From NCBI GenBank assembly GCA_016432485.1, contig CP066691.1, positions 516,709 through 580,708 of the forward strand: 64,000 bases of DNA. Reading direction: 5' to 3'. Below, one piece after another: positions 9,557 to 55,066 of the stretch. The stretch's first letter is position 1. Every line of letters starts with the position of its first letter. A program made the translations under genes and the position numbers. The notes under the pieces are model-generated. The model was not told where the DNA came from and ran no database searches. It was given only the letters and a program-made list of their open reading frames with translations. This stretch comes from Candidatus Niyogibacteria bacterium (GTDB taxonomy: Bacteria; Patescibacteriota; Minisyncoccia; HO2-45-28).

Positions 9557-10609
9557 TTACTTTTCTATTTTAACATTCGCTATTCGCGCCATTGAATCCG
9601 GGAACACGATTCCGTCATCAATCGCCCGTTTTGTATAGAGCACCAGAATATTTTTCTCCTCAAAATCAATCGGGATATCCGAGGGCTTTGCGCCGCCGAA
9701 TATTTTATCGGCTATCCTGGATGCCTGCTCGCCCGAAGCGGTAAGATCTCCGGCGTAACCGAAATGACCTCCGGTTGGCAAGTCCTCCAAAGGAGCCACC
9801 ATCGGAATTCTTAATCTGGAGGCCAGTTCGGTTTCCGCGGTCTCCTGCGCCTCAAAAAAATGACCGGCTATATGATATATGGCGTCAATATCTCCGGCTT
9901 TAATTTTGCTGGCAGTTTGATACCAGGCAGATTCAGCTCCCGGAGGAGCGGCGGTTGTTTTATATTCCACGATATCAAAGCCCTGTTTTTTGCCCTGGTT
10001 TTTTACTTCCTCCAAAAACTTATCTCCAACGTCCGGAACCACAAAACCGCTCCCGAAAACGCCGATTTTTTTAATGGCCGGATTTATCGCTCTTAAAAAT
10101 TCCAGATGTTTTTGCACTACCTCAACCAAATTTATTGAAATTCCGGTCGCGTTATTGCCGGAAGATTTAAAAGATTTTATAACGCCGTACGCCACCGGGT
10201 CATGGAATCTGGATGAAAATACTATCGGGATATCGCTTCCGGTCTCTTTCTCTATTTCCAATGCCGCCAGGGCTATATTTTCTTGAGTCGCGAATATCAA
10301 ATCCACTTTGCCTTGAATCAATTCTCTGGCGGAGTTTTCTATGTCAAGCGGCAAAGTCGGAGAAGAAGTAAAAACCCCTTTGTCCTCAAAAGAAACTTCC
10401 GCGTATCCCATATTCTTAAAACCCTCTTTAAAACCCTGAACGGCTTCTATGTGCTGTCTTGGAAAAATTATCCCTATTCTTTTCGGTTCTTTTAAGTGGG
10501 ACCTATCGGGGGCAAAAAATGGAAAGCCCCTTAATATCTGATAAAGGCCGAAGGCCACCGCCGCGACGATAATCGCCAGAATCAGGATGTTTAATGGTTT
10601 TTTAAACAT
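9557..10609 (-). CDS. ABC-transporter-type substrate-binding protein (ABC_sub_bind family), paralog 2
   Basis: Same architecture and motifs as 8504-9553; the two genes form a tandem pair. Confidence 0.6.
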   Translation of the reverse strand: MFKKPLNILILAIIVAAVAFGLYQILRGFPFFAPDRSHLKEPKRIGIIFPRQHIEAVQGFKEGFKNMGYAEVSFEDKGVFTSSPTLPLDIENSARELIQGKVDLIFATQENIALAALEIEKETGSDIPIVFSSRFHDPVAYGVIKSFKSSGNNATGISINLVEVVQKHLEFLRAINPAIKKIGVFGSGFVVPDVGDKFLEEVKNQGKKQGFDIVEYKTTAAPPGAESAWYQTASKIKAGDIDAIYHIAGHFFEAQETAETELASRLRIPMVAPLEDLPTGGHFGYAGDLTASGEQASRIADKIFGGAKPSDIPIDFEEKNILVLYTKRAIDDGIVFPDSMARIANVKIEK

Positions 10610-10685
10610 AATTTTTTATTGAGATTTTAATAATAAATTAAGGACTCTGCTCTATATTTCATTTTATAACGCGGAGTCCTAAATA

Positions 10686-11939
10686 TCAAAAGTGTGGCTC
10701 TGGTTTTTTTAACCGCAATGCCTCGCGCGCGATTTCGCGGTCATCCCAAGGAATTTTTTGTCCATTTGGACCCATCATCCAGGGTTCGGCGCCCTTGCCG
10801 GTGATGATGACAACATTTCCCTCTTTCGCGTCCGAAATCACCCTTTCAATCGCCTCGCGTCTATCCAAAATTTTTCGGATTTCGGATTTCGGATTTCGGA
10901 TTTGAGAAAACCCAGCCGCAATTTCTTCCAGAATTGCGGCTGGGTTTTCGTCGTAGGGATCCTCATTCGTCAAAATTATTTCATCGCAAAATTCCGCGGC
11001 GATCTTGCCCATTTCCGGCCTCTTCCATTTATCTCTTCCTCCGCCGGCAGAGCCCAAAACGCAAATCAGCTTGTAGCTTGTAGCTTGTAGTTTGTAGTTT
11101 TTTACGGCTTCGTAAACTTTACGGAGCGCGTCTGGGGTGTGAGCGTAGTCCACAATAACCGCGAACGGCTCATGCTGGATGAATTCCATCCGGCCGGGCA
11201 CACCTTCAATTTTTTCGGCCGCGCGTTTAATAACTTCCGCCGGAATACCGAGGACTTCGGCTGTTTTTACGGCGGCTGCCAAATTGTAAAGATTGAATTC
11301 TCCCAAAAGTTTTTCGTTTTTCGGAGCGTCATTTTTTGAATAAGTTATTTTTTTATCGGCGTCGTATTTCAAAAAATGTTCGGCCGAGGGGTCATCTATG
11401 TTTACAATTATTGTTTTTGGCGTATCGGGTTTACGGAATGTTTTTGAAAGCCCGGCAAAAACTTTTTCTTTTGCCGCGCGGTATTTTTCAAATGAACCAT
11501 GGGATTCAATATGTTCGGGCGTGATATTGGTCAAAACCAAAATATCCCAATCAATGTTTTTATGCCGAAATTGCTTTACGCCTTCCGAGGTAATTTCCAA
11601 AACGGCGTGGGTCGCGGCGCTATTAAGCGCGCGACGCAGAAATTTTTGAAGAAAAAACTTTCCGGGCATAGTCATTTTCAGCATATTTTTCTCCATTTCA
11701 TCGCCGATACGGAAATACAGCGACGAGACCGAGGCCGCTTTAATATCCGCTTCCCTCAAAATCTGAAAAATAAATTCAACCGCGCTGGTTTTGCCGTTGG
11801 TGCCGGTAACGCCGATAACTACCATTTTCCGCGACGGCCGGCCGTAAAAAATAACGGCTAAAGCCGAAAACAGCCGGTGATAAAACGGCTGTAAAAAATT
11901 AAAAATCGGCGCGGGAATAATTTTTTTAAAAAATTTCAT
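10686..11939 (-). CDS. Mur ligase family protein, MurE-like (short N-terminus)
   Basis: P-loop VIGVTGTNGKTS, DYAHTPDAL, and GSAGGGRDKWKRPEMG matching the MurE central and C-terminal domains. It contains two in-frame heptamer-repeat insertions. Confidence 0.7.
   Translation of the reverse strand: MKFFKKIIPAPIFNFLQPFYHRLFSALAVIFYGRPSRKMVVIGVTGTNGKTSAVEFIFQILREADIKAASVSSLYFRIGDEMEKNMLKMTMPGKFFLQKFLRRALNSAATHAVLEITSEGVKQFRHKNIDWDILVLTNITPEHIESHGSFEKYRAAKEKVFAGLSKTFRKPDTPKTIIVNIDDPSAEHFLKYDADKKITYSKNDAPKNEKLLGEFNLYNLAAAVKTAEVLGIPAEVIKRAAEKIEGVPGRMEFIQHEPFAVIVDYAHTPDALRKVYEAVKNYKLQATSYKLICVLGSAGGGRDKWKRPEMGKIAAEFCDEIILTNEDPYDENPAAILEEIAAGFSQIRNPKSEIRKILDRREAIERVISDAKEGNVVIITGKGAEPWMMGPNGQKIPWDDREIAREALRLKKPEPHF
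10876..10903. repeat. heptanucleotide tandem repeat (CGGATTT)x4 inside murE
   Basis: Four exact tandem copies encoding SQIRNPKSEIRKI in the murE frame. Confidence 0.9.
11068..11100. repeat. heptanucleotide tandem repeat (AGCTTGT)x3 plus degenerate copies inside murE
   Basis: AGCTTGTAGCTTGTAGCTTGTAGTTTGTAGTTT, encoding KLQATSYKL. The stretch sits between the conserved DYAHTPDAL and GSAGGGRD blocks. Confidence 0.9.
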
Positions 11940-12514
11940 TATTTCCCCCTCCCCAAAATATTAAGCGCGGATTTGATACGGTCGGAAACGCCCTTAACTT
12001 CGGGCGGAACTTTGTTTAGTGCCTCTCGCGCCTCACGTAAAGAATATCCGAGCGAGCGCAAAGCATCTAATGCGTCTTCTTCGTGACGGAATTCGTCAGA
12101 CCCTTCAACCCCCTTGCCCATTTTTTCGCGAAGCTCAATTACTATTTTTTCAGCGGTTTTGCGGCCGATTCCCGAAACTTTGGTCAGGTAAGAAGTTTCG
12201 CCCGCGGCTATCGCCCGTTTCAAAGTATCAACCGGCGCGATGCCCAAAACGCCGAGAGCTGTTCTCGGCCCCACGCCAGGCACATTATTCAGTGTTTCAA
12301 AAAGTTCCATTTCGGCCAAAGTCATAAATCCGTAAAGTTCCATCGCGTCTTCTCTGATGTAAAGAGAAGTGAAAATCTTGATTTTACCTTCGTTTTGTGA
12401 TAATTTTTGAAGCGTTTCGGGTGCGACAAAAACTTTGTAGCCGATACCACCCGCTTCAAGAATGACATAACGCAAACCCTTAAAAGTTATTTTGCCTTCA
12501 AGCGATATAATCAT
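11939..12514 (-). CDS. ruvA: Holliday junction branch migration protein RuvA
   Basis: MIISLEGKI...GIGYKV N-terminal OB domain, HhH motifs (VPGVGPRTA, VSGIGRKTAEKI) and a C-terminal domain III. Confidence 0.9.
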   Translation of the reverse strand: MIISLEGKITFKGLRYVILEAGGIGYKVFVAPETLQKLSQNEGKIKIFTSLYIREDAMELYGFMTLAEMELFETLNNVPGVGPRTALGVLGIAPVDTLKRAIAAGETSYLTKVSGIGRKTAEKIVIELREKMGKGVEGSDEFRHEEDALDALRSLGYSLREAREALNKVPPEVKGVSDRIKSALNILGRGK

Positions 12515-12605
12515 ATGCCAAATTTATACGAACATAAGTGAGTAAATAAATTTGAGCATCCGCCGAAGCTTTATGCGAAGGCGGATATACACATATTATA
12601 CAATT

Positions 12606-14624
12606 ATGGACTTTAAATTACATTCTCCATATAAACCAGCCGGCGACCAACCGCAAGCCATAGAAAAATTGAACGCGGGGATAAACGCCGGAAAAAAATT
12701 CCAGACCCTTATGGGGGTTACCGGCTCCGGCAAAACTTTTACTATGGCGAGCATTATCGCGCGCTTAAATCGGCCGACGCTCGTGATTTCTCACAATAAA
12801 ACCCTGGCGGCGCAACTCTATCAGGAATTCAAAGAATTTTTTCCGGAAAACGCGGTTCATTATTTCGTCTCTTATTACGATTATTACCAGCCGGAGGCCT
12901 ATTTGCCGGCCACCGACACATACATAGAAAAAGACGCCAAAATAAACGATTTCATTGACCGTCTTCGCCACGCCTCAACCGAATCGGCGCTAACTCGGCG
13001 CGACTTCATCATAGTCGCTTCGGTTTCCTGCATTTACGGAATCGGCGACCCCGAAGAATACGCTAAAATCGCGCTGGAACTGAAAATCGGGAGAGTATTT
13101 AAACGGGGGGATTTTTTAAAACGCATGGCTGATATGCAATATGCCAGAAACGACATAGATAAAATACACGGGACTTTTTCGGTCAAGGGTGATGCGGTTG
13201 AAATCGTATCTCCCGATGGAGAGACAATAATACGCGTTGATTTTTTCGGCGACAAAATAGAATCGCTTTCCGAGCGCAAAAACTCTCCATTGTCTAATTC
13301 GCGCGAATTAGACAATAGAAAAATCTTCCCAGCCAAGCATTTCATCACGGAAAAAGAAAAGCTGGGTGTCGCGATAAAAAACATAAAAATCGAACTTGAC
13401 GAACGATTGGAGGAGCTCGGAAAAGCCGGCAAAATACTTGAGGCCGAACGGCTGCGTCAGCGCGTCAACTTTGATATGGAGATGCTGGAACAAACCGGCT
13501 ATGTTTCCGGCATTGAAAATTACTCGCGCCAGCTCTCTTTTCGTAAAGCCGGCTTGCCGCCTCAAACGCTTCTGGATTACCTGCCCAAAGACGCGCTTAT
13601 TTTTATTGACGAATCGCACATGTCCATGCCGCAAATACGCGGGATGTTTGAGGGAGATAAAGCAAGAAAACGGGTGCTCGTGGATTACGGATTTCGTTTG
13701 CCTTCCGCCTTAGACAACAGGCCGCTTAAATTCAATGAATTTGAAGAAAAAATCGGGCAAACCGTTTTTATCTCGGCGACCCCAGCCGATTTTGAAATAA
13801 AAAAATCCGGAGGGGAAATTGTGGAACAACTTATTCGGCCGACGGGACTTTTGGAGCCAAAAATAGAAATACGCCCCGCCTCCGCTTCCGCCTTCGCTAA
13901 AGCTTCGGCGGACAAGAAAGCTACGGCGGGCAAGCCCGCAAAGGGCCAGATAAAAGACGCCGAAGAAGAAATCGCAAAAGCGGCAAAAAATAACGAACGG
14001 GTTTTATTGGTTACGCTGACCAAACGGCTCGCGGAAGAAATAGCGGATTATTTGAGGGAAAAAAATATAAAAGTTGAATACCTTCATTCGGAGATCAAAA
14101 CAATAGAGCGTTCAAAAACATTGCAAAATTTACGCAAGGGCGATTTTGATGTGCTGGTCGGAATAAATCTTCTGCGCGAGGGGCTTGATTTGCCCGAAGT
14201 CGGACTTGTCGCGATATTGGATGCCGATAAAGAAGGTTTTTTAAGAAATTTTACTTCGCTGACGCAAACAATCGGACGCGCGGCGCGTCATCCTAACGGA
14301 AGAGCGATACTTTACGCAGACACATTAACCCTCTCAATTGAACGAACCATCAAAGAAACGGAGCGCCGAAGAAAAATCCAAGAGGACTATAATCGCATCC
14401 ATAAAATCACGCCTCAAGCGATTAAAAAAGAAATAAGGCCTCCGTTTTGGCTGGAAGAAAAAAGCCAAAAAGACGAATTGGCCGAAACCCTAAAACAACT
14501 GCAAAAAGAATTCCGCGACCCGGCGCGCGTAAAAGCCGAGCTTGAACGCCAAATGCTGGAAGCCGCCTCCGAACTTCGTTTTGAAGAAGCGGCTAAATTA
14601 AGAGACCTCTTGAAAATAATTTAA
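12606..14624 (+). CDS. uvrB: excinuclease ABC subunit B
   Basis: [17 protein letters not shown] start, Walker A GVTGSGKT, helicase motifs and a C-terminal UvrB/UvrC interaction region. Start chosen at the internal Met matching the canonical UvrB N-terminus. Confidence 0.93.
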
Positions 14625-14644
14625 GAAGGGCTTATTATCTTTGT

Positions 14645-14914
14645 ATGCCAATAATCAAATCAGCCAAAAAAGCAATAAGGCAGACGGAAAGGCGGAGGCG
14701 CAGAAACATCGCCCGCAAAGACGCCGTAAGCGAAACCGTAAGAAATATCAAAAAACTTGTGGCCGATGGGAAAACGAAAGAGGCCTTAGCACTCTTGCCT
14801 CTGGCCTATAAAGCTCTGGATAAAGCGGCCAAAACAAATGTTATTCACAAAAACGCCGCCAGCCGCAAAAAATCACGCCTGACAAAATTCATAAAAAAAT
14901 CAGGCAAGCTCTAA
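14645..14914 (+). CDS. rpsT: 30S ribosomal protein S20
   Basis: MPIIKSAKKAIRQ... is the canonical S20 N-terminus; 89 aa, basic. Confidence 0.9.
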   Translation: MPIIKSAKKAIRQTERRRRRNIARKDAVSETVRNIKKLVADGKTKEALALLPLAYKALDKAAKTNVIHKNAASRKKSRLTKFIKKSGKL

Positions 14915-15790
14915 AATCAGGCGCTCAAGGCCGGATTCCAGATCCGCGCTTCCTTCTCTTGAGTCCCGCCAAAGGGCGAATAGTTCGTCCCAGATTTTGA
15001 CAAGCTCTTCTTTTGAAAATCGCGAAAGGGCGGATAAACTTTTCTGTATGACAAACGGATGCAAACCTGTGCTCGACTTAATTTGAAAATTATTAAGGCC
15101 TTTTTGCTTTTCGGCCGAAACAGCAAGTAAGGTTTTAATCTGCCACCATAGTTTCCAGAACATTTCTTCGGCCGAAACTCCGCTTGCCAAATCAGCATAA
15201 AAATATTTATAGGCCTCGCGCCTTTTTTTAAGAGTAAACAAGTCCGTCAGACCAAAGGGGTTGTATAAAAATTTACGGACATCAATTTCTCCCCCCAAAC
15301 TTTTAAGCTCAAGGACTTGTGAAATGGTCCAAAGATTTGACTCAAAATCAGAACTTAAAAAACCGATTTCCTGTTCTGACAGAGCCAGCTCCCTGACTTT
15401 TGCCTCATTTATTATCCAGGCCTTTGTTTTGTCGGCCGAAAGCTTGTCCAATTTCAGCGTTTTTTGGGCGAATTTTGATATTTTTTTTACGAGTTTGCTG
15501 TCCGGTTTATTTTCCAAAATAATATAAACATTTTTGGACTCATGCATTTCTTTCGCGCGCTTCGTCAAAAAATCGGCGTGAACTTCCAAAAGCCCGTCAA
15601 AAACGGCGGCTGATTTTCGGCCAAAAAGATTTTGTCCGGCAATCAAGTCGGCTATTTTTTCTTCGTTTGAATTTTCCGGAGTAAGTCGGTGAATCTCCGC
15701 TCCCGGATCGCGGAAAACAAGATTCGCGGTTATTTCACGGACATTTTTTCTAGCCCTATATGAATCCTCTCCGTAAATTAAATACAGCAT
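14900..15790 (-). CDS. holA: DNA polymerase III subunit delta
   Basis: N-terminal LYLIYGEDSY, 296 aa, with a HolA-like domain pattern. Confidence 0.6.
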   Translation of the reverse strand: MLYLIYGEDSYRARKNVREITANLVFRDPGAEIHRLTPENSNEEKIADLIAGQNLFGRKSAAVFDGLLEVHADFLTKRAKEMHESKNVYIILENKPDSKLVKKISKFAQKTLKLDKLSADKTKAWIINEAKVRELALSEQEIGFLSSDFESNLWTISQVLELKSLGGEIDVRKFLYNPFGLTDLFTLKKRREAYKYFYADLASGVSAEEMFWKLWWQIKTLLAVSAEKQKGLNNFQIKSSTGLHPFVIQKSLSALSRFSKEELVKIWDELFALWRDSREGSADLESGLERLILELA

Positions 15791-15801
15791 GCAACAAAAT
15801 T

Positions 15802-15830
15802 TCTAATTTCTAATTTCTAATTTTTCTAAA
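15802..15830. repeat. heptanucleotide tandem repeat (TCTAATT)x3 at the polA 3' end
   Basis: TCTAATTTCTAATTTCTAATTTTTCTAAATT; it encodes the polA C-terminal tail LEKLEIRN. Confidence 0.85.
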
Positions 15831-18154
15831 TTGGCCCAGTTGGGTCCCGCGCTTAGTTCAACCTTTATCGGGACATCCGATTCCAAAACGCCTTCCATAA
15901 TTTCTTTGATTTTTTTGCCCGCGGATTTTAAAATCTCTTCGTCAACTTCAAACAAAAGCTCGTCGTGAATCTGCAAAATCATATTCGCTTTTCCTTTAAA
16001 ATTTTTATCTTTGTTTAACAAATCGTGAATCTTAATCATTGATATTTTAATCATGTCCGCGGCAGTTCCCTGGATAGGCATATTGACGGCCATTCTTTCC
16101 GCCTCGCGCCTGATAAACTCCAAATGCGAATTGATTTCCGGCAAAAGCCGTCTGCGTCCGAAAAAAGTGGAAACAAAACCTTTCTCGCGCGCCTCCTCAA
16201 CGATTTTTTGGGTATAATTCCTGACGCCTTCAAAGTCGCTGAAATATTCATGGATATAAAGCCCGGCTTCTTCCTGACTGATGCCCAAATTTTCAGCTAG
16301 GGCCCGCTTCCCCATGCCGTAAAGTATACCGAAATTTATTATTTTGGCCCGTCTTCTCATTTCGGGCGTAACTTCATTTTCTTTGACATTAAAAATTTCG
16401 CCGGCGGTGGCCGCGTGAATATCCTTTCCGGCCAGAAAAGCGTCTTTAATTTTTTTATCATCCGAAAGAATGGCTGCGATCCTTAATTCTATCTGGGAGT
16501 AATCCGCCGCCAGAAGAACTTTTCCGGCCGGCGCGTAAAATGCCCCCCGCACCTCGCGGCCGAGCTCCGTTCTGGCGGGAATATTCTGAAGATTCGGATC
16601 GCGAGACGCCAAACGGCCGGTTACGGTGCCGGTCTGCAGAAAAGTCGTATGCAGTCGTTTGTCGGAGCCGACCAATTTAGGAAGCGCGTCCACATAAGTT
16701 GATTTTAATTTCGCCAGCTCCCTGTATTTTAGAATTTCATCAATTATGGGATTTGAACCCCTGAGTTTCAAAAGTTCGGAAAATCTGGTTGATTTTTCGC
16801 CTCCTCCGGTTTTTTTAATGCCCCTGGCCTCAAGCCCCAATTTTTCAAAAATGATCCGGCGCAATTCTTTGGTTGAATTTATGTTGAATTTTTCGCCCGC
16901 GATTTTATGTATGGCCTCCGTAAGACGCAGAAGTTCTTTATCATATTTTTTGGAAAGCTCTTTTAAAATTTTAATATCAAGCGCGATGCCGGTTTCGCGC
17001 ATTTCCCACAAAACACCTATCAAGGGCAGTTCAATATCCTGAAAAATCTTGAGAAGTCCGGCCTTTTCCATCTCAAGTTTAAGCGACACGTAGGCTTCGG
17101 ACGCGTCTTTGACGCCCATTGATTTAACTACTTCCTCGGCTGAAACATTCAGACGGCGCGAATCCAAAAGCCAAAAAGCCAATTCTATTTTTGACGCAAG
17201 TTCGGCGTTTATTTTGCCTCTCTCTGTTTCTTCTTCTTTCCCGCCCGTCGCCTGAGAAATGCGTTGGATCAAGCTGGCAAAACCGAGTTCCCGAAAAAGA
17301 TTTTCAATCTCTTTCGGTTTAAATCCTGACCAGCGGGCTTTATCCAGGTCAAATTTAATTTTCGCGTCTTTACGAATAGTCGCCAATGTCTTTGAAAACA
17401 GGGCTTCTTCTTCGTTTTCAGCCAAAAGTTTTATTATCCGGTCTTTGATTCCGGCGGATTTTAATTTTTCCGGTTTATTTTTGGCTAAATCCAAAATATT
17501 TTCAAGGGAGCCGAATTTTTGGATTAAATCCTTGGCCGTTTTTTCGCCGATGCCTTTAACTCCGGGGATATTATCCGACGGGTCGCCGACCAGACCTTTA
17601 TAGTCCGGAACAAATTCCGGGCCGAAGCCGTATCGTTTTTCCACTTCTTTCTGGTTGTAAATAAATTCCTCCTTGCCTTTTTTCAAAGTATAAACTCGAA
17701 CTTTATCCCCGCTGACCAGCTGCAGGGTGTCTAAATCGCCGGAGGCAATCACAATATTTAAATCTTTGGATTTTTTATTTTTTTCGGAAACAGTCCCGAT
17801 TATGTCATCCGCTTCGTATCCGGCTTCTTCATAAACCGGAATGTTGAAAGATTTTAAAATTTCCCGCGAACGATTAAATTGCGGAATCAGTTCATCGTCA
17901 ACTTTGGCTCTCGTGGCTTTGTATTTTTCGAAAGCCAAATGGCGAAAAGTCGGCTCAGCCATATCATAGGCCGCGGCGATATAGTCCGGTTTTAACTCGC
18001 GGATTATTTTTAAAAGCATTGTTGTAAATCCGTAAAGCGCTCCGGTCGGCTCGCCCTTAGGAGAAGTAAAGGGCGGCAAAGCGTGATAAGCCCGATGCAA
18101 AATCGCGTGAGCGTCAAGAATCACAAGCAGTTTTTTGGTTTGTTTTTTGGCCAT
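15803..18154 (-). CDS. polA: DNA polymerase I (5'-3' exonuclease plus polymerase domains)
   Basis: 5'-nuclease N-terminus and polymerase motifs RRRAKIINFGILYGMG and QIHDELLFE. The C-terminal tail is encoded by a heptamer repeat. Confidence 0.93.
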   Translation of the reverse strand: MAKKQTKKLLVILDAHAILHRAYHALPPFTSPKGEPTGALYGFTTMLLKIIRELKPDYIAAAYDMAEPTFRHLAFEKYKATRAKVDDELIPQFNRSREILKSFNIPVYEEAGYEADDIIGTVSEKNKKSKDLNIVIASGDLDTLQLVSGDKVRVYTLKKGKEEFIYNQKEVEKRYGFGPEFVPDYKGLVGDPSDNIPGVKGIGEKTAKDLIQKFGSLENILDLAKNKPEKLKSAGIKDRIIKLLAENEEEALFSKTLATIRKDAKIKFDLDKARWSGFKPKEIENLFRELGFASLIQRISQATGGKEEETERGKINAELASKIELAFWLLDSRRLNVSAEEVVKSMGVKDASEAYVSLKLEMEKAGLLKIFQDIELPLIGVLWEMRETGIALDIKILKELSKKYDKELLRLTEAIHKIAGEKFNINSTKELRRIIFEKLGLEARGIKKTGGGEKSTRFSELLKLRGSNPIIDEILKYRELAKLKSTYVDALPKLVGSDKRLHTTFLQTGTVTGRLASRDPNLQNIPARTELGREVRGAFYAPAGKVLLAADYSQIELRIAAILSDDKKIKDAFLAGKDIHAATAGEIFNVKENEVTPEMRRRAKIINFGILYGMGKRALAENLGISQEEAGLYIHEYFSDFEGVRNYTQKIVEEAREKGFVSTFFGRRRLLPEINSHLEFIRREAERMAVNMPIQGTAADMIKISMIKIHDLLNKDKNFKGKANMILQIHDELLFEVDEEILKSAGKKIKEIMEGVLESDVPIKVELSAGPNWANLEKLEIRN

Positions 18155-18279
18155 TTATTATTTAATTGTAAAGAAAAATAACCCTCTCTACGAGGGGCTT
18201 GACTTTTTAACGGTAAAATGCTACTTATACTGTAGGCGTAAATTACGCAACACACGAACATTCACAAAAGGAGAGAGGC

Positions 18280-18894
18280 GTGAACAACACACAGCTAAAC
18301 AGAACTCTGGATGATTTTATGGCCAAAAAAGTGAAATCAGACCAAGAAAATCTCCGCGTCGAGGAACTTGAAATAGCTTCCGAAGCAAGAAAACGGTGGA
18401 ATATTGAAACCTTTTCGGACGAAGAATTTCTGAACCTTATGATCAAAAAGAGCGTCTCTGTCAGAGATGTTAAATCTATGCTATTTACCGAAAGAAAACT
18501 AAACGCCAAGAACCGCCTTAACCGTGACGAGGAAAAACACTGGTCAAGAATTAATTTTTCAGCCGCCGAAAACGTAAGGAAAAAACTGGTACTCTCGTCC
18601 ATGTCCAAAGCAAATGCTGTCGAATCTTATAAAACATGGCTGCGAGGTTTTTTGGAAAGAGGCGGACGATTAACGAATTCTTACAATTATCCAATGCCAA
18701 GCGTGTTTTTTGTGGCAAAGGAAGATTTCGTAATGATTCCTTTGTATGGCTCGTCTTCCATTAATGTCATAGTCCCGGCCAACATTCATTTTTTGGGCGG
18801 CTCACTTGGACACTCCGGTCTTTTCTTAACGGATAAATTCGAGGTTGTCGGCGGAACCGGGCGGGTCCCGATTTATAGCGATATCAGATTCTAG
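18280..18894 (+). CDS. hypothetical protein (GTG start)
   Basis: Strong SD AAAGGAGAGAGG 5 nt upstream of GTG; 204 aa with no recognised family. Promoter-like TTGACT upstream and a terminator-like GC hairpin plus T-run downstream. Confidence 0.45.
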   Translation: MNNTQLNRTLDDFMAKKVKSDQENLRVEELEIASEARKRWNIETFSDEEFLNLMIKKSVSVRDVKSMLFTERKLNAKNRLNRDEEKHWSRINFSAAENVRKKLVLSSMSKANAVESYKTWLRGFLERGGRLTNSYNYPMPSVFFVAKEDFVMIPLYGSSSINVIVPANIHFLGGSLGHSGLFLTDKFEVVGGTGRVPIYSDIRF

Positions 18895-18953
18895 ATCTTA
18901 GCTCGTTCAATTTGCCCTGCGGCTTTTTCAAGCCCGCGGGGTTTTTGTTTTTT

Positions 18954-19409
18954 TTACTTATTGCCAAACTCTATTCTTCTTTTGTTTTCGGAAATATGTT
19001 GGAAATTTATATCAAAATGGTCTTTGGGCAAAATTTTCGCGATGTGACGCGCCCATTCCACGACAATTATATTTTTTGGATTTTTAACAAGCTCTTTCCA
19101 GCCGAGGACCAAAATGTCTTTCGGTCTTTTGAGGCGATAAGCGTCAATATGCGCGAACAGCTTGTAGCTTTTAGCTGGTAGCTTATAGATTCTCATTATT
19201 AAAAAAGTCGGGCTTTGGATTTTGGAACGAATGCCGAGGCCCCGAGCAAAACCCTGGACGAAAGTCGTTTTCCCGCTACCTAAATCGCCCGAAAGCGCCA
19301 AAATTAAAGCGTGTTTTTGAAGACAAACTTTAATCAATTCGCCGGCCAAAATTTTGGCTATCTTTTGAGTTTCTTTCGCCGAATTTGTTTTAAAAGAAAC
19401 GCTGCTCAT
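18954..19409 (-). CDS. tsaE: tRNA threonylcarbamoyladenosine biosynthesis protein TsaE
   Basis: P-loop LSGDLGSGKTTFVQG and a HIDAYRL motif. An in-frame degenerate heptamer repeat encodes YKLPAKSYKL. Confidence 0.85.
   Translation of the reverse strand: MSSVSFKTNSAKETQKIAKILAGELIKVCLQKHALILALSGDLGSGKTTFVQGFARGLGIRSKIQSPTFLIMRIYKLPAKSYKLFAHIDAYRLKRPKDILVLGWKELVKNPKNIIVVEWARHIAKILPKDHFDINFQHISENKRRIEFGNK
19159..19188. repeat. degenerate heptanucleotide tandem repeat (AGCTTNT)x4 inside tsaE
   Basis: AGCTTGTAGCTTTTAGCTGGTAGCTTATAG. It shares the 13-mer CAGCTTGTAGCTT with the murE repeat. Confidence 0.8.
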
Positions 19410-19440
19410 TAAACCAATTTTATCGAAAATTTAGGCAAAT

Positions 19441-19487
19441 ATAAAATATCCCGCCAAACAGAGCTTACGAGCTCTGTCTAGCGGGAC
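19441..19487 (-). terminator. intrinsic terminator of the lipoprotein gene
   Basis: Hairpin CCCGCC...CAGAGC-TTAC-GAGCTCTG...GCGGG followed on the minus strand by ATATTTTAT. Confidence 0.55.
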
Positions 19488-19491
19488 GTTT

Positions 19492-20019
19492 TCACTTTCC
19501 TGACAAAAGCCGAGACGCGATATGGGCCGCGACCCTGAAAGAACTTAACCAAGCGCCGGCGTAAATCCCGCTATCGCCCCTAAACTCATGTTCTCCAACC
19601 GAAGCGGCAATCACGCGTCCGGCTTGATCAATCACCCGGACAACAATCATAGCCCTGCCTTTATAAAGATACAAGTTCCCAAAGACATTGCTTTTATCCC
19701 GTATCCGCGAGGCGCAAACCAGGGCCTCAAAATCAGGTAGCGCCCAACGCTTGCGCGGCCAACGATCGCGCACGCCCTCAACCACTACGATGGCACCCCG
19801 ATGACGCAAACCCCTCTCAATTATGGGCGCGATAATCGCGACATCCTCGCCGGTTCCGCGGGCATAACATTGCCCAACATTGTAACGAATCAAAACAGTA
19901 CTATTGCGGATTTGAGGAACGGGCCTCCACCTCGGAAGTTTGATGGCCTTTGGACTGGAAGCGCACCCGAAGATAAAAATCGGCATAAACGCACAGAAAA
20001 TCCACAGGATTCTCTTCAC
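19492..20019 (-). CDS. putative lipoprotein (GC-rich, Arg-rich)
   Basis: Signal peptide with lipobox FGCASS; GTG start with SD AAAGGAGG; local GC about 52% against about 45% background. Confidence 0.5.
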   Translation of the reverse strand: MKRILWIFCAFMPIFIFGCASSPKAIKLPRWRPVPQIRNSTVLIRYNVGQCYARGTGEDVAIIAPIIERGLRHRGAIVVVEGVRDRWPRKRWALPDFEALVCASRIRDKSNVFGNLYLYKGRAMIVVRVIDQAGRVIAASVGEHEFRGDSGIYAGAWLSSFRVAAHIASRLLSGK

Positions 20020-20059
20020 TTTTCCGCCTCCTTTAAGAGTTTTTCAACAGGTAATTAAC

Positions 20060-20088
20060 TGCCTATTGGATTATATCACTATTTGTTT
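20060..20088 (-). promoter_or_regulatory. near-consensus sigma70 promoter TTGACT-N17-TATAAT for the lipoprotein gene
   Basis: The minus strand reads TTGACTtgggaaacaaatagtgaTATAAT about 40 nt upstream of the SD. Confidence 0.6.
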
Positions 20089-20159
20089 CCCAAGTCAAAT
20101 AATATATTTACCTAAAACACAAACAATAAAGATTCGAATCTTGCTTCTTTGCGCCGGAA

Positions 20160-21287
20160 ATGATAAGAAATAATAAAGTGACCCAAAATCAAGAAACGTT
20201 AAAAAATCTTATAGACTCAAGCGTCAAAATTTTGCTCGCAAGCGAACCTTCGGCCGACGAAGCAACGAGGCTGGCTATGTTTGCCTTAAAAAATGTGCTG
20301 GAGAGCCTGGGTAAAGAAGTTTTTTTACATCCCGCTCCGGGTGAAAAATTCAAAGAAAAATTCAAAGAAATTCTCCCCGAAAGGTTTGAGAGAGAAATCC
20401 CGCAGAAAATAAAAATAAAAATCCCAAAATCCTCCATAATTGATGAGCTGCGCTACGAAGAAGAAGAAAATTTCTTAAGCGTGGTCGTCTTGCCGAAAGG
20501 AAAAATTGAGCCGGCAACTATTCAAATTGAAAAATCGCCCTATGACATGGACGCGGCTTTTTGCTTTTTTGCGCCACAAGACTCCTCTCTCGGCGAAGAC
20601 TATGAATCCGGATGGCGTAAAATCGCGGCCCCGACGGCAAAACCGCCCGGAGAAAAAATAGTCTACCTCGTTAACGGCGAAAAAACTCTTGCCGGAAAAA
20701 TAAGTGACATTCACGAAGCGATGGACGGCTCTCAGTCTTTGCCCCCACTAACGGCAACTCTTTTGATGGCTTCGCTTGTTTATGAAACCGAGAATTTCCA
20801 AGGACGATGCGGACCGGAAGCATTCAAACTCGCAAATTTATTGCTCGAACTCGGCGCCGATAAAAAGACCTTAGACAAAATATTGCTCTTGGAAAAAGAC
20901 CCTCGATTTGTCCAGATTGTGGGCCGGGCGCTGGCGCGAACGGCGTCTGAAACAGAACTTAAAACCAGCTGGACATACCTCACCAAAAAAGACTTTGAAA
21001 AGACCGAATTGGAATCAACGAAAGAAAATCTGCTTTTTATTTTACGAAAGATTCGGGCCGGCATTATGCCTCACCGGTCCTCAATAATATGTTACGAAAG
21101 CGGCGGCGGAATAGAATCGCTCATTTTTAACGAGGACAGAAAAATTCTAAACGTCATGGCCGCGGTTTTGGGAGCGGAGCCCGAAAGCCTGTATTTTTTT
21201 ACTTCCGGTTTTAAAAATTTTTCGGAAGCCGAAACAAAAATACGCCAATTGTTGAAAGATAACATTTCGGATAGAATGAAAGAATAG
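20160..21287 (+). CDS. DHH/DHHA1-like protein with degenerate catalytic motifs (NrnA-like)
   Basis: Overall NrnA-like layout, but DHH is replaced (DMDAAF) and GGGH is GGGIE. Contains a short 12-nt tandem repeat (AAATTCAAAGAA) encoding EKFKEKFKE. Confidence 0.35.
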   Translation: MIRNNKVTQNQETLKNLIDSSVKILLASEPSADEATRLAMFALKNVLESLGKEVFLHPAPGEKFKEKFKEILPERFEREIPQKIKIKIPKSSIIDELRYEEEENFLSVVVLPKGKIEPATIQIEKSPYDMDAAFCFFAPQDSSLGEDYESGWRKIAAPTAKPPGEKIVYLVNGEKTLAGKISDIHEAMDGSQSLPPLTATLLMASLVYETENFQGRCGPEAFKLANLLLELGADKKTLDKILLLEKDPRFVQIVGRALARTASETELKTSWTYLTKKDFEKTELESTKENLLFILRKIRAGIMPHRSSIICYESGGGIESLIFNEDRKILNVMAAVLGAEPESLYFFTSGFKNFSEAETKIRQLLKDNISDRMKE

Positions 21288-28467: not shown

Positions 28468-31032
28468 ATGGCAGGAAAAAGAAACCTCCTCAAAAAGACA
28501 AAAAAGATATTCTTTTACGGAATAGCCGCGGCGGTTTTGTTCGTTGGCTCTCTTTCCGTGTGGGCTTTAACTTTGGACATTCCGGACTTTGAGGCCTTTG
28601 ACCAGCGCAAAGTCGTGCAGTCAACAAAAATTTACGACCGCTCGGGCGATATTCTTTTATATGACATACATAATGACATACGAAGAACCGTGGTCGCTTT
28701 TGGCGAAATACCGCCCGGCGTCAAAAACGCGACCGTGGCCATGGAAGATTCTAATTTTTACAACCACTACGGCATAAGCTTTCTCGCGATTATGCGCGCG
28801 GCTTTTGTTGACGTGATTTACGGCGGCGTGCACCAGGGCGGATCAACCATAACCCAACAGCTGGTCAAAAAAGCTCTTCTGACCGACGAACAAACCATAA
28901 CCCGCAAACTCAAAGAATTGGTGTTGGCACTCAAGGTGGAACGCGCTTTCAGCAAAGAACAAATCCTGGGTTTTTATCTCAATGAAATACCCTACGGATC
29001 TTCGGCCTACGGAATCGCGGCGGCCGCCGAAACTTTTTTCGGCAAAAAACTGCGGGACATAACTTTAGCCGAATCGACCTATCTTGCTTCTCTCCCCAAC
29101 GCGCCGACTTTTTATTCGCCGTACGGCCCGCACCAAAAAGAACTTAATGAAAGAAAAAATCTGGTTCTTAAAAGAATGTTGGACCTCGGCTTCATAACCC
29201 AAGACGAGGCCGATAAAGCCGAGAGGGAGGAAGTTAAATTCATACCGCGCGGCAATGAAACGTTGAAAGCGCCGCATTTTATATTCTACGTCCGAGATTA
29301 CCTCACTGAAAAATACGGGGAAGAGGCCGTGGAATCTGGCGGACTTAAAGTGGTAACGACTCTTGATTGGAATCTTCAGCAAAAAGCCGAGGACTTAACG
29401 GAAAAATTTGTTGAGGATGAAGAAGAAAAATTTAATGTTTATAATGCCGGCCTTATCGCTACCGACCCTCAAACGGGCCAAATACTGGTAATGGTCGGCT
29501 CAAAAGATTGGTTTTCTGAGCCCAAACCCGAAGGATGTTCGCCGGGCTTAAACTGCAAATTTGAACCGCACGTAAATGTGACCGCTTACGCCTCGGGCCG
29601 CCAGCCCGGCTCGGCTTTCAAACCATTTGTTTATGCGACTGCTTTTCAAAAGGGCTTTACTCCCGAAACCGCGGTCTTTGATTTGCCGACCGAGTTTAAT
29701 CCGTCTTGCGACCCGGACGCGGCCAAGGCCCTTGCCCGAGAAGAAGAACAAAACGAAGAAAAAAAAGATAATTGCTATCACCCGAGAAACTATGACGGCG
29801 TCTTTCGCGGGCCGATAATTCTGCGGGAAGCGCTGGCTCAATCCATCAACCTGCCGGCAGTCAAAACTCTTTACCTTGCCGGCCTTTCGGAATCGCTTAA
29901 AACCGCGAAAAAACTGGGCATTACAACCCTTAATGATCCCGACCGTTATGGATTAACTCTGGTTTTAGGCGGAGGAGAAGTTAAATTGCTGGAAATGGTC
30001 GGAGCATACGGGGTCTTCGCTAACGATGGGGTACGTAATCCCTTAACATCAATCCTTAAAGTGGAGGACGCGAAAGGGAACATTCTTGAAGAATTCCAGC
30101 CAAAACCCGAAGAAGTTCTTGATAAGCAAACCGCCCGTCTTATAAACGATGTGCTCTCGGATAATGAAGCCCGAACTCCGGCTTTTGGCGCGGCCTCTCC
30201 CTTATATTTTCCGGGCTGGGATGTCGCGGCTAAAACCGGAACCACCAATGATTCCAGAGATGCCTGGGTGGTGGGCTATACTCCCAATCTGGCCTGGGGA
30301 GTGTGGTTTGGCAATAACGACAACTCGGAGATGGTCAAAAGTATTGCCGGATTTATCGCAGCACCATTGTGGAATGCTTTTTTTCAGGAAGCATCGCGTA
30401 CCCTTGAGAAAAAAGAATTTATTTCTCCGGCACCGACCGAACCTAAAAAGGCGGTGCTTAACGGCGGGTGGCGCGGAAGCCGAACTTACACCATTGATAA
30501 GATTTCAAAAAAATTAGCGACTGCTTTTACGCCGCAGCAGTATAAGGAAGAAAAACCGCTGATTCAGATACATTCAATTCTTTACTGGCTGGATAAAAAT
30601 AATCCGGACGGGCCCATCCCTCAAAATCCATCAGACGACTCCCAATTTTCTTTATGGGAATATCCCGTAAGAAAGTGGGCCGAATCAAAAAATCTCCGCG
30701 AAGAGAGCGAAAGCGACATTCCGACGCAATATGATGACGTTCATCTTCCTCAGTACGCGCCGGAGATTTCGTTTGTTGTTTCGCCTCCGGATGAGTCCAC
30801 GTATTCCGGTTCGATATCATTCACATTGTCGGCTAGTTCCCGCTATCCCATAAGTCAGATGGACGTTATCTTTGGCAACAGATTTATCGGCTCCATTAAA
30901 AACGCGCCGTACTCGTTTTCCATTGATCTTGCAAAAATAAAAGACCTGCGTCCCGAAGAAACTCTGGTCATAAATGTTTACGACAGCGTCGGTAACAGTT
31001 CTTCACTTGAAAAAACCATCCGTTTGAGATAG
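28468..31032 (+). CDS. class A penicillin-binding protein (glycosyltransferase plus transpeptidase) with C-terminal extension
   Basis: GT51 motifs (EDSNFYNHYGIS, RKxxE), transpeptidase SAFKP (SxxK), SxN and KTG triad; 854 aa. Confidence 0.9.
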   Translation: MAGKRNLLKKTKKIFFYGIAAAVLFVGSLSVWALTLDIPDFEAFDQRKVVQSTKIYDRSGDILLYDIHNDIRRTVVAFGEIPPGVKNATVAMEDSNFYNHYGISFLAIMRAAFVDVIYGGVHQGGSTITQQLVKKALLTDEQTITRKLKELVLALKVERAFSKEQILGFYLNEIPYGSSAYGIAAAAETFFGKKLRDITLAESTYLASLPNAPTFYSPYGPHQKELNERKNLVLKRMLDLGFITQDEADKAEREEVKFIPRGNETLKAPHFIFYVRDYLTEKYGEEAVESGGLKVVTTLDWNLQQKAEDLTEKFVEDEEEKFNVYNAGLIATDPQTGQILVMVGSKDWFSEPKPEGCSPGLNCKFEPHVNVTAYASGRQPGSAFKPFVYATAFQKGFTPETAVFDLPTEFNPSCDPDAAKALAREEEQNEEKKDNCYHPRNYDGVFRGPIILREALAQSINLPAVKTLYLAGLSESLKTAKKLGITTLNDPDRYGLTLVLGGGEVKLLEMVGAYGVFANDGVRNPLTSILKVEDAKGNILEEFQPKPEEVLDKQTARLINDVLSDNEARTPAFGAASPLYFPGWDVAAKTGTTNDSRDAWVVGYTPNLAWGVWFGNNDNSEMVKSIAGFIAAPLWNAFFQEASRTLEKKEFISPAPTEPKKAVLNGGWRGSRTYTIDKISKKLATAFTPQQYKEEKPLIQIHSILYWLDKNNPDGPIPQNPSDDSQFSLWEYPVRKWAESKNLREESESDIPTQYDDVHLPQYAPEISFVVSPPDESTYSGSISFTLSASSRYPISQMDVIFGNRFIGSIKNAPYSFSIDLAKIKDLRPEETLVINVYDSVGNSSSLEKTIRLR

Positions 31033-31033
31033 T
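31008..31033. repeat. 26-bp direct repeat, left copy (3' end of the PBP gene)
   Basis: TGAAAAAACCATCCGTTTGAGATAGT is identical at 32693-32718. Confidence 0.9.
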
Positions 31034-31821
31034 CATTCGGATGTCGTATTTTTAAGTTTTTCTTCCTCCTCCCTGTCATATCTCTCTGCCCTTTCCCAGG
31101 CCAGTTCGTAAAGTTTTTTCATGGCCTCGGCAATTTCGCGGCCTTCAATAACTACTCCGAATTTTTCAGCTAAAGACATAAAAACGACCTTGTTATCATA
31201 GATGTATATTTCGGGCGATATGCTGAATTTTTCATGAGGTACCAAAAGCGCGGTGCGCAAAAACTTTTCTCCGACGCGTTTTAAATGAAGGCCGTATTTT
31301 TCCGTGGGAATAATGGTGCGAATTGGTATTCCTTTTTCAGTGCGGCGGCGGAAATAGTTCTCGGCGTATGAGCCAAGCACTTTTTTAATGTCATGTGTTG
31401 AGCTGTAGCTTAAAATCGTTTCGGAGCTTGTCAAACTGTCTTCATAAAGCGAGGTAACGCCGTCAAACCCCTCATAATAACGCACTTGGGGTTTGTCTTT
31501 GCGCAAACTATGAATGGAGAGAAGTTGGGGCAAAAGTTTTTTAGCCGCTTCTAACCGCTTTTTGTTCTTACTCAGGTCGTCTTCAAGCCGGTCCACCAAA
31601 ATGTACGGGTCTTCGGCGGCATAAATCTTCCTCCCTCTTCTGTCTTGGGATTGACTGACCAGCTTCTTTGCCACCAAACCCTCCAAAACGTTATAGCCAC
31701 TAGTGCGATTTATACCTGCTTTTCGAGCAATATCAGCCACAGCTGATGACCCCAGCTCTAAATTTGCCGCATAAACTCGGGCTTCATTTTCAGAAAAACC
31801 CAATTCTTCCAACTCACGCAT
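31033..31821 (-). CDS. TrmB-family transcriptional regulator
   Basis: N-terminal wHTH (ELEELGFSENEARVYAANLELG...IARKAGINRTSGY) and a C-terminal TrmB-type domain. Start taken at the Met preceded by GGAGGT. Confidence 0.7.
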   Translation of the reverse strand: MRELEELGFSENEARVYAANLELGSSAVADIARKAGINRTSGYNVLEGLVAKKLVSQSQDRRGRKIYAAEDPYILVDRLEDDLSKNKKRLEAAKKLLPQLLSIHSLRKDKPQVRYYEGFDGVTSLYEDSLTSSETILSYSSTHDIKKVLGSYAENYFRRRTEKGIPIRTIIPTEKYGLHLKRVGEKFLRTALLVPHEKFSISPEIYIYDNKVVFMSLAEKFGVVIEGREIAEAMKKLYELAWERAERYDREEEEKLKNTTSE

Positions 31822-31830
31822 TATACCTCC

Positions 31831-31862
31831 ATTATACACCTACAGTATTTTGTGTCAAGACT
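31831..31862 (-). promoter_or_regulatory. perfect-consensus sigma70 promoter TTGACA-N16-TATAAT for the TrmB gene
   Basis: The minus strand reads TTGACAcaaaatactgtaggtgTATAAT-GGAGG-tataATG. A second TTGACA and a CAAGACTCTTG palindrome lie just upstream and are candidate operators. Confidence 0.65.
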
Positions 31863-31918
31863 CTTGCACAGTTTGTCAAGAGCAGTATGTTTTACAACAA
31901 TTTTCTTGTCCCTACTAC

Positions 31919-31946
31919 TTGACAAGGTGTCTGTTTGATGTATAAT
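31919..31946 (+). promoter_or_regulatory. perfect-consensus sigma70 promoter TTGACA-N16-TATAAT for the membrane protein gene
   Basis: cTTGACAaggtgtctgtttgatgTATAAT; the -35 lies inside the palindromic CTTGACAAG motif that is shared with the divergent promoter. Confidence 0.65.
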
Positions 31947-32010
31947 GGGGACAGGAAGTCAGTAGTTTCCTTGAAACATAAACCAGTACAAACAGAAAGG
32001 GAGAAGAAAA

Positions 32011-37520: not shown

Positions 37521-37527
37521 AAAATCT

Positions 37528-55030: not shown

Positions 55031-55066
55031 GTCCGAACCGAGTTCGGATCCGAACTCGGTTCGGAC
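55031..55066. repeat. TCCGAAC-family perfect 36-nt palindrome (intergenic)
   Basis: GTCCGAACCGAGTTCGGATCCGAACTCGGTTCGGAC, abutting the stop codon of the gene at 55066-55932. Confidence 0.9.

Follow-up and report, generated by a model that had tools for sequence, protein, structure and literature searches.

Heptanucleotides were reported to be the most abundant class of long-unit simple sequence repeats (SSRs) in most prokaryote genomes. Slippage was proposed to be favored because 7 nt is the length of DNA in contact with the polymerase, and repeats in coding DNA were noted to tend toward units divisible by three (Mrazek et al. 2007, as summarized in PMC4679880 and PMC4692102). The over-representation of heptamers in prokaryotes has been known since 2007, and its characterization has been confined almost entirely to intergenic DNA, where each genome used a single unit (PMC4679880, PMC4692102). 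The present study concerns a 64-kb stretch of a Candidatus Niyogibacteria genome (contig CP066691.1, positions 516,709 to 580,708; the whole stretch is referred to as the window), for which an earlier note had reported four heptamer tracts, two in murE, one in tsaE and one at the end of polA. All four were confirmed by Tandem Repeats Finder (TRF) and by a scan for exact runs. They fall under the definition of heptanucleotide SSRs and differ from the described cases in four respects, namely, the many units used per genome, the mostly coding location, the change in quanta of three units and the stability in close strains. It appears probable that the tracts are heptanucleotide microsatellites of four to five copies, generated by a lineage-wide, slippage-type process and filtered by the reading frame, and that they are neither switches nor mobile DNA.

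With respect to the prokaryotic class of repeats with units of 5 to 11 nt, the tracts showed iteration of at least 3 copies and an excess over both chance and other unit lengths. As in the survey of Mrazek et al., to the extent that it is summarized in the two papers above, units of 7 nt were over-represented among those of 5 to 11 nt, the arrays were short, and a polymerase-linked slippage of 7 nt has been proposed. According to the same summaries, the surveyed repeats are mainly intergenic, whereas here 70% were found in open frames, including those of essential genes, with three-unit quanta and in a Patescibacteria host. The GGGAATC and GGGGA(T/C)T repeats of Xanthomonas and Nostoc (Rehm et al. 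2015, PMC4692102) share with the present tracts the heptamer unit, a preference for about four units and positions that are conserved in related genomes. In contrast to those repeats, the present tracts are A-rich and G-poor, use many units and are stable between close strains. The four-unit preference seen here therefore cannot stem from G-quadruplexes, and it can be argued that the preference reported elsewhere is not specific to them. The TAACTGA repeats of marine Beggiatoaceae, cyanobacteria and Bacteroidetes (MacGregor 2015, PMC4679880) resemble the tracts in having 2 to 6 copies, in a stop content that limits their position, and in lying in some cases directly upstream of start codons or across gene ends. 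They differ in relying on a single favored heptamer, in being almost entirely intergenic and in their suspected horizontal spread. The tandem repeats of Borgs (PMC9879509) are likewise perfect, of local origin and A-biased, encode low-complexity protein loops and derive their seeds partly from the flanks. Their coding units are divisible by three, whereas the 7-nt units studied here keep the frame only in triples.

Phase-variable loci such as the heptanucleotide repeats of Haemophilus HMW1A and Escherichia coli neuO also have a unit that is not divisible by three in or near genes, with a frameshift resulting from a single-unit slip. Those loci are long, polymorphic in populations and located in surface or accessory genes, whereas the tracts described here are short, strain-invariant and located in housekeeping genes. 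Cyanobacteria reportedly carry dispersed heptanucleotide short tandemly repeated repetitive (STRR) sequences, also inside the RNase P RNA gene, where they are said to be tolerated at a permissive position of a functional essential gene, much as in the present case. Unlike the present tracts, they are said to comprise few fixed units, to be mostly non-coding and to have no link to reading-frame quanta, and they belong to another phylum. The tracts could not be assigned to the STRR sequences, which are known as fixed units of heterocystous cyanobacteria; the host is a member of the Niyogibacteria, and the units are AAATCCG, AAGCTAC, AAATTAG and AAGTTTC. No description of heptanucleotide or 7-bp repeats in Patescibacteria, the candidate phyla radiation (CPR) or Parcubacteria was found in searches of the literature.

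At the scale of the window, the comparison with shuffled sequence that the earlier note had proposed gave three exact runs of period 7, where 200 dinucleotide-preserving shuffles averaged 0.01. Therefore, chance is no explanation for the tracts. Exact runs at each of the other periods from 4 to 11 numbered zero in the window, and within the 64 kb no period from 4 to 15 except 7 reached three or more perfect copies. The four tracts consisted of head-to-tail iterations of 3.7 to 4.4 perfect or near-perfect copies (Table 1), and the 13-mer CAGCTTGTAGCTT, said to be shared by murE and tsaE, was present in both. Lower thresholds brought up two further tracts missing from the original list, one in ksgA and a weaker one at the end of an open reading frame (ORF), and the six tracts together represented four different unit families. 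The encoded peptides were QIRNPKSEIR at murE site 2 (AAATCCG), NYKLQATSYKL at murE site 1 (CTACAAG), YKLPAKSYKL in TsaE (sense unit CTAYMAG) and NFKFQVSSFKK in a variable region of the ksgA product. The protein of ORF 37528-38691 ends in ..SLEIIN before its stop, and its tract has the same unit family as the polA end.

Both in this Niyogibacteria genome and in related Patescibacteria, heptamers are the dominant class of tandem repeat. This was seen in a census of 80 MurE loci from different Patescibacteria genomes (mostly of the Parcubacteria or Paceibacteria types) together with the window and the assemblies L001 and L002, amounting to 83 loci and 1.28 Mb, with a TRF threshold of ≥3 copies and ≥80% matches. 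Exact tandem runs numbered 39 at period 7 and 0 to 4 at each other period from 4 to 15, while TRF tracts numbered 64 at period 7 and 1 to 7 at any other period. The period-7 TRF tracts were spread over 36 of the 83 loci, and none was found by the same analysis in 100 kb of E. coli K-12. Their length ranged from 21 to 41 nt, with a mode of 30 to 33 nt (4.3 to 4.7 copies) and a maximum of 5.9 copies, and at least 30 different heptamers served as units. Short runs at lag 7, up to ~2 copies, were similar to those at lags 5 to 10, and an extra population with 11 to 34 matched positions was present at lag 7 alone. Long open frames made up ~90% of the bases and contained 45 of the 64 tracts (70%), in place of the mainly intergenic location of the published heptamer cases; per base, tract density was ~3.8 times higher outside long open frames. 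On the sense strand, the coding tracts were A-rich (44%), G-poor (11%) and free of stop codons.

Table 1. Period-7 tracts of the window and the genes that contain or adjoin them. The leading units of the murE, polA and tsaE tracts are written as the antisense strand of these minus-strand genes.
Feature	Position	Strand	Description
murE site 2 tract	10873-10903	-	(TTTCGGA)x4.4, 100% perfect; sense (AAATCCG)x4.4
murE site 1 tract	11068-11097	-	(AGCTTGT)x4.3, one mismatch; sense (CTACAAG)x4.3, two G>A variant units
polA-end tract	15798-15823	-	(AATTTCT)x3.7, 100% perfect; sense (AAATTAG)x3.7
tsaE tract	19159-19188	-	Degenerate (AGCTTGT)x4.3, 78% matches; sense CTATAAG CTACCAG CTAAAAG CTACAAG CTG
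ksgA/rsmA tract (fifth)	48679-48705	-	Sense (AAGTTTC)x3.9, 80% matches; surfaced at lower thresholds
Weak sixth tract	37522-37556	-	TTAGAAA/TTATAAA/TTAGAGA; 3' end of ORF 37528-38691; surfaced at lower thresholds
Mur ligase gene (murE)	10686-11939	-	Pfam M and C domains; 417 aa; NCBI name for the identical protein is MurE; two tracts inside
holA	14900-15790	-	DNA polymerase III delta subunit; ATG 8 nt downstream of the polA-end tract
polA	15803-18154	-	Assigned by Pfam; 783 aa; 3' end and stop codon inside tract
tsaE	18954-19409	-	Assigned by Pfam; 151 aa; degenerate tract inside
ksgA	48582-49445	-	Fifth tract inside

The size of the steps was apparent from the MurE orthologs, in which the tracts fall into two loops, one before LICVLG (site 1) and one before KILDR (site 2). 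Without periodicity, the site-1 loop was 17 to 18 residues long in most orthologs. Each of the 11 orthologs whose lag-7 signal was strong had a loop of 24 to 25 residues or, in one case, 32. Since three units amount to 21 nt, the excess of 7 or 14 residues corresponds to 3 or 6 units. The same step could be read from the codons: the window has AA CTACAAA CTACAAG CTACAAG CTACAAG CTG where L005, the closest tract-less relative of the window clade in the tree, has AA TAACAAT CTT, a difference of exactly +3 units. At site 2, where heptamer tracts were present in many orthologs, the baseline was 19 to 23 residues and loops with a strong lag-7 signal had mostly 24 to 30.

The units were continuous with their surroundings. 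At site 1 of the window, the final unit merges into the conserved K-L codons (AAG-CT) of KLICVL, and the site-1 unit TCAAGAC of L009 includes the AGA-CT of an R-L that is present there in tract-less orthologs. Site-1 units varied by clade (CTACAAG, CTACAAA, TCAAGAC, AAATTTC, AAGCGAC, AACAACT and AAGTTCC), and those of site 2 were mutually related (AAATCCG, AAATTCG, AAATCCT, AAACCCT, AATTTCC, AAATGTC and AAAGTTC). Several site-1 loops of 25 residues lacked periodicity, and these we read as old, decayed tracts. In a rough neighbor-joining (NJ) tree, tract-bearing taxa stood beside tract-less sisters in several clades. The two MurE sites, together with the TsaE hairpin, are recurrent hot spots. 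In a confident AlphaFold (AF2) model of MurE with a mean predicted local distance difference test score (pLDDT) of 89.6, the tract residues are predicted to occupy coil or low-pLDDT segments. Site 1 was modeled as a helix end plus coil (residues 283-290) with the lowest internal pLDDT, 68, and site 2 as the end of helix 333-346, the coil 347-352 and the start of strand 353-356.

Since 7 is coprime to 3, each 21 nt of a heptamer array cover the three codon phases, and the same cyclic heptapeptide results whichever frame is used. With all three phases being read, a unit that contains a stop triplet cannot be tolerated within a gene. Stops are present on both strands of AAATTAG, and tracts of this type were located in the window only at gene ends. 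When copy-number changes were simulated, ±1 unit left truncated products of 288-364 aa for MurE and 90-111 aa for TsaE, and +3 units added 7 residues. At the polA end, ±1 unit left PolA with 783 or 789 aa. It had been suggested that copy-number slippage would toggle the frames of essential genes. The simulation supports this for MurE and TsaE as far as the consequence is concerned, but no toggling was seen between assemblies, and for polA the suggestion does not hold: with stops on both strands and a change of 0 or +6 residues upon ±1 unit, this tract is unable to switch an essential frame.

A metagenome scan for (AAGCTAC)3 returned at least 120 stretches on contigs with a GC content of 0.27 to 0.66. 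Among 80 of these, the (AAGCTAC)n copy number had its mode at 4.3 to 4.6. Arrays deep in open frames were mostly 30 to 34 nt long, and non-coding arrays extended up to 126 nt (18 copies), which fits frame selection on the coding arrays. Arrays of 12 to 18 copies were found on L104, L127, L133, L141, L148 and L157, several of them at contig ends. As the GC content of these contigs reaches 0.66, long arrays of this heptamer also form in organisms unrelated to Patescibacteria.

TsaE presented a different picture. The segment from SPTF to YRL had 28 residues in ~100 of the 120 closest orthologs, and the beta-hairpin comprised 17 aa with or without periodicity in the DNA. An interpretation of the tsaE tract, whose lag-7 match was 0.59 in the window, as a length insert was therefore ruled out. 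The earlier note had described the repeats as inserted between conserved motifs. Alignment to orthologs bore this out for MurE, with its loops longer by 7 or 14 residues, and contradicted it for TsaE, with its constant hairpin. Phylum-wide conservation of the DNA periodicity was also ruled out, since only some of 24 loci were periodic, one of them with period 8. In the latter, the hairpin of a Nealsonbacteria TsaE (L024:386-817), a tract of (CAATTTAA)x4 replaces period 7, a rare case of a non-7 tract at a hot-spot site.

Many TsaE orthologs read xYKLxxKxYKL or xFKIxxxxFKN, and their residue covariation followed the 7-nt register. Pairs expected from a nucleotide shared within the unit were over-represented: S should go with A for AGCT units and N with T for AACT units, and the observed pairs were A-S 12, T-N 9, A-N 4 and T-S 0 (Fisher p = 4.6e-4, not corrected for phylogeny). 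The D-R pairing, observed in 8 cases, matches the unit AGATTTA. These pairings, along with paired G/A differences between the window and L001 (described below), point to homogenization of the units without a change in length. Concerted evolution is thus suggested by the joint change of adjacent units. If, alternatively, selection acted on the protein and favored repeated peptides, such as YKL...YKL beta-hairpins, the DNA periodicity would be a by-product. Such selection would agree with the conserved hairpin length and with the aromatic residue that the two arms mostly share (Y/Y 40, F/F 32, mixed 20), but a 7-residue peptide repeat needs no 7-nt period in the DNA. Moreover, the units are identical in nucleotides, synonymous positions included, tracts also lie between genes and across stop codons, and the A-S/T-N and D-R pairings are predicted by the shared nucleotide and not by structure. 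This explanation is considered very unlikely.

Strains were compared at the level of assembly consensus. MurE and TsaE of the window matched proteins of a Candidatus Niyogibacteria metagenome-assembled genome with an 837-kb contig at 100% identity. L001, another assembly with ~97% nucleotide identity, covers all four tracts with the same copy numbers. Its AAATCCG, AAATTAG and tsaE tracts were identical to those of the window, and its murE site-1 tract had the same length and was perfect; from it, the window differs by two G-to-A changes exactly 7 nt apart, which fall on the corresponding position of two neighboring units. Among contigs of other samples, the tsaE tract was identical seven times (L084-L090, 99.9 to 100% identity), the polA-end tract in L086 and L087, the two of the seven that reach it, and the murE site-1 tract in two further contigs (L213 and L214). 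No copy-number difference was found in any assembly spanning a tract at 97 to 100% identity, whereas orthologs differed by 3 or 6 units. With the same copy number in every spanning assembly, there was no sign of phase variation. Contingency loci, in which slippage would switch essential genes on and off, have precedents in the heptanucleotide switches of Haemophilus and E. coli, and a single-unit change would indeed truncate MurE and TsaE. As an account of the present tracts they are highly improbable, because at consensus level L001 and, where they cover the tracts, L084-L090, L213 and L214 showed no polymorphism, the hosts murE, tsaE, polA and ksgA are essential housekeeping genes rather than accessory or surface genes, the arrays have only four to five copies, orthologs differ by multiples of three units, and the polA tract is robust to frame changes.

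The 3' ends of L213 and L214 fall inside the perfect 31-nt tract at murE site 2. Polymorphism was rejected as the reason, since graph breaks at a perfect repeat of about the assembler k-mer length probably explain these ends better. Based on our understanding of the assembler, we take them to be k-mer graph breaks. Contig ends of this kind in the Logan data could also be cited in favor of an assembly or sequencing artefact. The probability of this is close to nil, as the same tracts were recovered in independent assemblies from different samples and projects, are kept in frame and have homologous counterparts in dozens of other genomes.

L001 contained one extra tract, (ATAGCTT)x4.6, in the spacer between rpsT and uvrB (L001:7306-7337); the corresponding window sequence (14605-14644) is shorter and unrelated. 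It was not accepted as a clean presence/absence indel, because the whole spacer has diverged and clean boundaries are lacking. In the same assembly, uvrB was called as two ORFs and polA holds a run of N, probably reflecting assembly quality.

The tract at the polA-holA junction had been described as encoding the last residues of PolA. This is correct for the C terminus (..EKLEIRN), but the tract also supplies the TAG stop codon, runs 5 nt past it and ends 8 nt before the ATG of holA. L005, with 49% HolA identity, keeps the AAATTAG tract with 25/28 nt identical, while the 38 nt upstream are ~66% identical. PolA ends in ..LEIKN in L005 and in ..LEIRN in the window, and other PolA orthologs stop a few residues earlier. 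In L002, an array of (CAAACTA)x5 ends 4 nt before the holA ATG. Most of the holA loci compared had no tract upstream. The 783-aa PolA itself has the Pfam 5'-3' exonuclease N and C domains and DNA_pol_A, with no 3'-5' exonuclease domain, which may bear on repeat instability.

The similarity of the junction between the window and L005, the L002 array and the A-rich sense strand of the tracts would fit a functional cis-element in the 7-nt register. This could be a site for a single-strand binding protein that binds heptamer-wise, or an A-rich spacer devoid of structure that serves the initiation or coupling of translation, with selection acting especially on intergenic tracts. Precedents are the heptamer repeats of Beggiatoaceae directly upstream of start codons and the binding of CspB to heptamer repeats (PMC4679880). 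As a general explanation it is nonetheless unlikely. The units vary widely within one genome, the majority of tracts lie in coding loops with many visibly decaying, an Rfam gathering scan of 10000-20500 gave no match, and concerted evolution alone is able to keep arrays near-perfect. Conservation at polA-holA and the L002 array leave room for a cis role of some intergenic tracts, even though most holA loci are without one.

The process best supported by these data would start with the local tandem amplification of a 7-nt seed already resident in the gene. The copying, either slipped-strand or reiterative, would intrinsically favor the 7-nt register. Within an essential gene, the resulting tract would persist only if the net change was three units, equivalent to 21 nt or 7 codons, and only in a surface loop, a hairpin or a C terminus. 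Units carrying stop codons, such as AAATTAG, would survive only at gene ends and between genes. The units of an existing tract would then change together in a concerted, conversion-like manner, and the tract would eventually decay by point mutation or be lost in steps of 21 nt. On the timescale of strains, the tracts are stable, and they would be translated as ordinary loop residues and would not act as frame switches. The slippage-type mechanism, the independent gains and the homogenization are all inferred from comparison of sequences.

Several observations weigh against this sequence of events. One classical slip is not enough for a seed of 1.x copies to acquire three units, and the intermediates of +7 and +14 nt would be frameshifts in essential genes. 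Two-copy duplications were not enriched in the census, numbering 77 at lag 7 as compared with 63 and 71 at lags 6 and 8, respectively. Therefore, the birth step is not ordinary stepwise microsatellite growth. No slippage event was directly seen among the assemblies spanning a tract, and the constant TsaE hairpin calls for homogenization or replacement rather than insertion. The independent, recurrent gains or losses of the MurE tracts are read from a tree that is rough. In addition, unrelated sites share units: murE and tsaE both have AAGCTAC, with the related AAGCTAT in the spacer of L001, and two gene ends have units of the AAATTAG type. The same units also occur at the same MurE sites in the distant L038 and L079. 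Pure local seeding does not obviously predict a recurrence of units across sites or lineages.

A more specific version of the process is put forward tentatively. In Patescibacteria of the Parcubacteria type, a lineage-wide process in the 7-nt register may write blocks of 21 nt (7 codons) into permissive loops, also those of essential genes, in effectively one step and then homogenize them at constant length, and some stop-containing arrays (polA-holA and 37522) may have been co-opted as all-frame terminators or translation-initiation spacers. The 7-nt process would then be a property of the reduced replisome or repair machinery. If true, one-step writing of 21 nt would constitute a systematic generator of lineage-specific loop insertions in proteins.

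The recurrence of units would fit a dispersed or mobile short sequence. Here, pre-formed arrays of ~30 nt would be copied by recombination, by ectopic-template repair or by an unknown element and tolerated in permissive loops. The presence of one unit family at unrelated sites in a single species, both for AAGCTAC with its variant and for the AAATTAG type at the polA end and 37522-37556, would follow from this. So would the absence of enriched two-copy intermediates and the distribution in L038 and L079, which carry AAATCCG, and L038 also AAACTAC, at the MurE sites of the window while their sisters do not. The (AAGCTAC)3 metagenome stretches could be added, but that scan had no control pattern, and a favored or mobile unit cannot be deduced from it. 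A single mobile element is at odds with the number of different units in the census, and each MurE site-1 unit merges with ancestral flanking codons. The tracts and flanks read directly contained no terminal inverted repeats, palindrome, target duplications or constant flanks. The only presence/absence case in close strains, the rpsT-uvrB spacer of L001, was not a clean indel. For the same reasons, the tracts did not resemble Rickettsia palindromic elements (RPEs) or miniature inverted-repeat transposable elements (MITEs), having neither the same sequence at all sites nor terminal inverted repeats or a target-site duplication. The earlier note had offered a tolerated mobile insert and a slippage-prone mechanism as the two options. 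Of these, the slippage type is favored by the flanking codons within the units, by the differences in unit between sites and lineages and by the steps of 3 or 6 units. A mobile sequence fits poorly, because a constant element, terminal repeats and target duplications are all absent and the length of TsaE is unchanged; its involvement is judged improbable.

Under the preferred slippage-type reading, what is new is that the heptamer class dominates the tandem repeats of an uncultured, genome-reduced phylum and operates inside essential genes, where the reading frame acts as a filter that exposes both the step size of three units and the sites tolerant of change. The tracts provide a concrete source for many small lineage-specific insertions in Patescibacteria proteins, and the hot-spot loops of MurE and TsaE over hundreds of genomes form a natural data set for the birth, homogenization and decay of arrays. 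On the practical side, perfect 31-nt tracts appear to break k-mer assemblies, and annotators should recognize odd low-complexity peptides such as QATSYKL, KSEIRNP and NFKFQVS.

Other repeats were also present in the window. The paired palindromic 15-mers CCGAACTCGGTTCGG and CCGAACCGAGTTCGG had 6 occurrences against 0.2 expected, with pairs at 48943-48974 and 49135-49173, in frame in ksgA on the minus strand, and at 55033-55064 between genes. The ksgA pairs encode ..RFRTRFGVRIRTEFGI.. and ..NSVRVRTEFGF.., and in an alignment neither segment had a counterpart in Bacillus subtilis KsgA. The pairs look like copies of a small palindromic element that is tolerated in frame, which would be a second type of in-gene insertion, distinct from the heptamers. 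In uvrB (12552-14624, plus strand), repeats of 6, 12 and 18 nt at 13872-13934 encode a low-complexity stretch, their periods being divisible by three, unlike those of the heptamers. At 59388-59533, short tandem repeats with periods of 6, 9, 18 and 12 lie next to one another (AAATCC, AACACCGAG, CGAATCAGATTACCGAGA and CGGAGGGATTGT). The cumulative GC skew had its minimum, with a sign change, at ~30000-32000 of the window, and a replication origin or terminus may lie within it.

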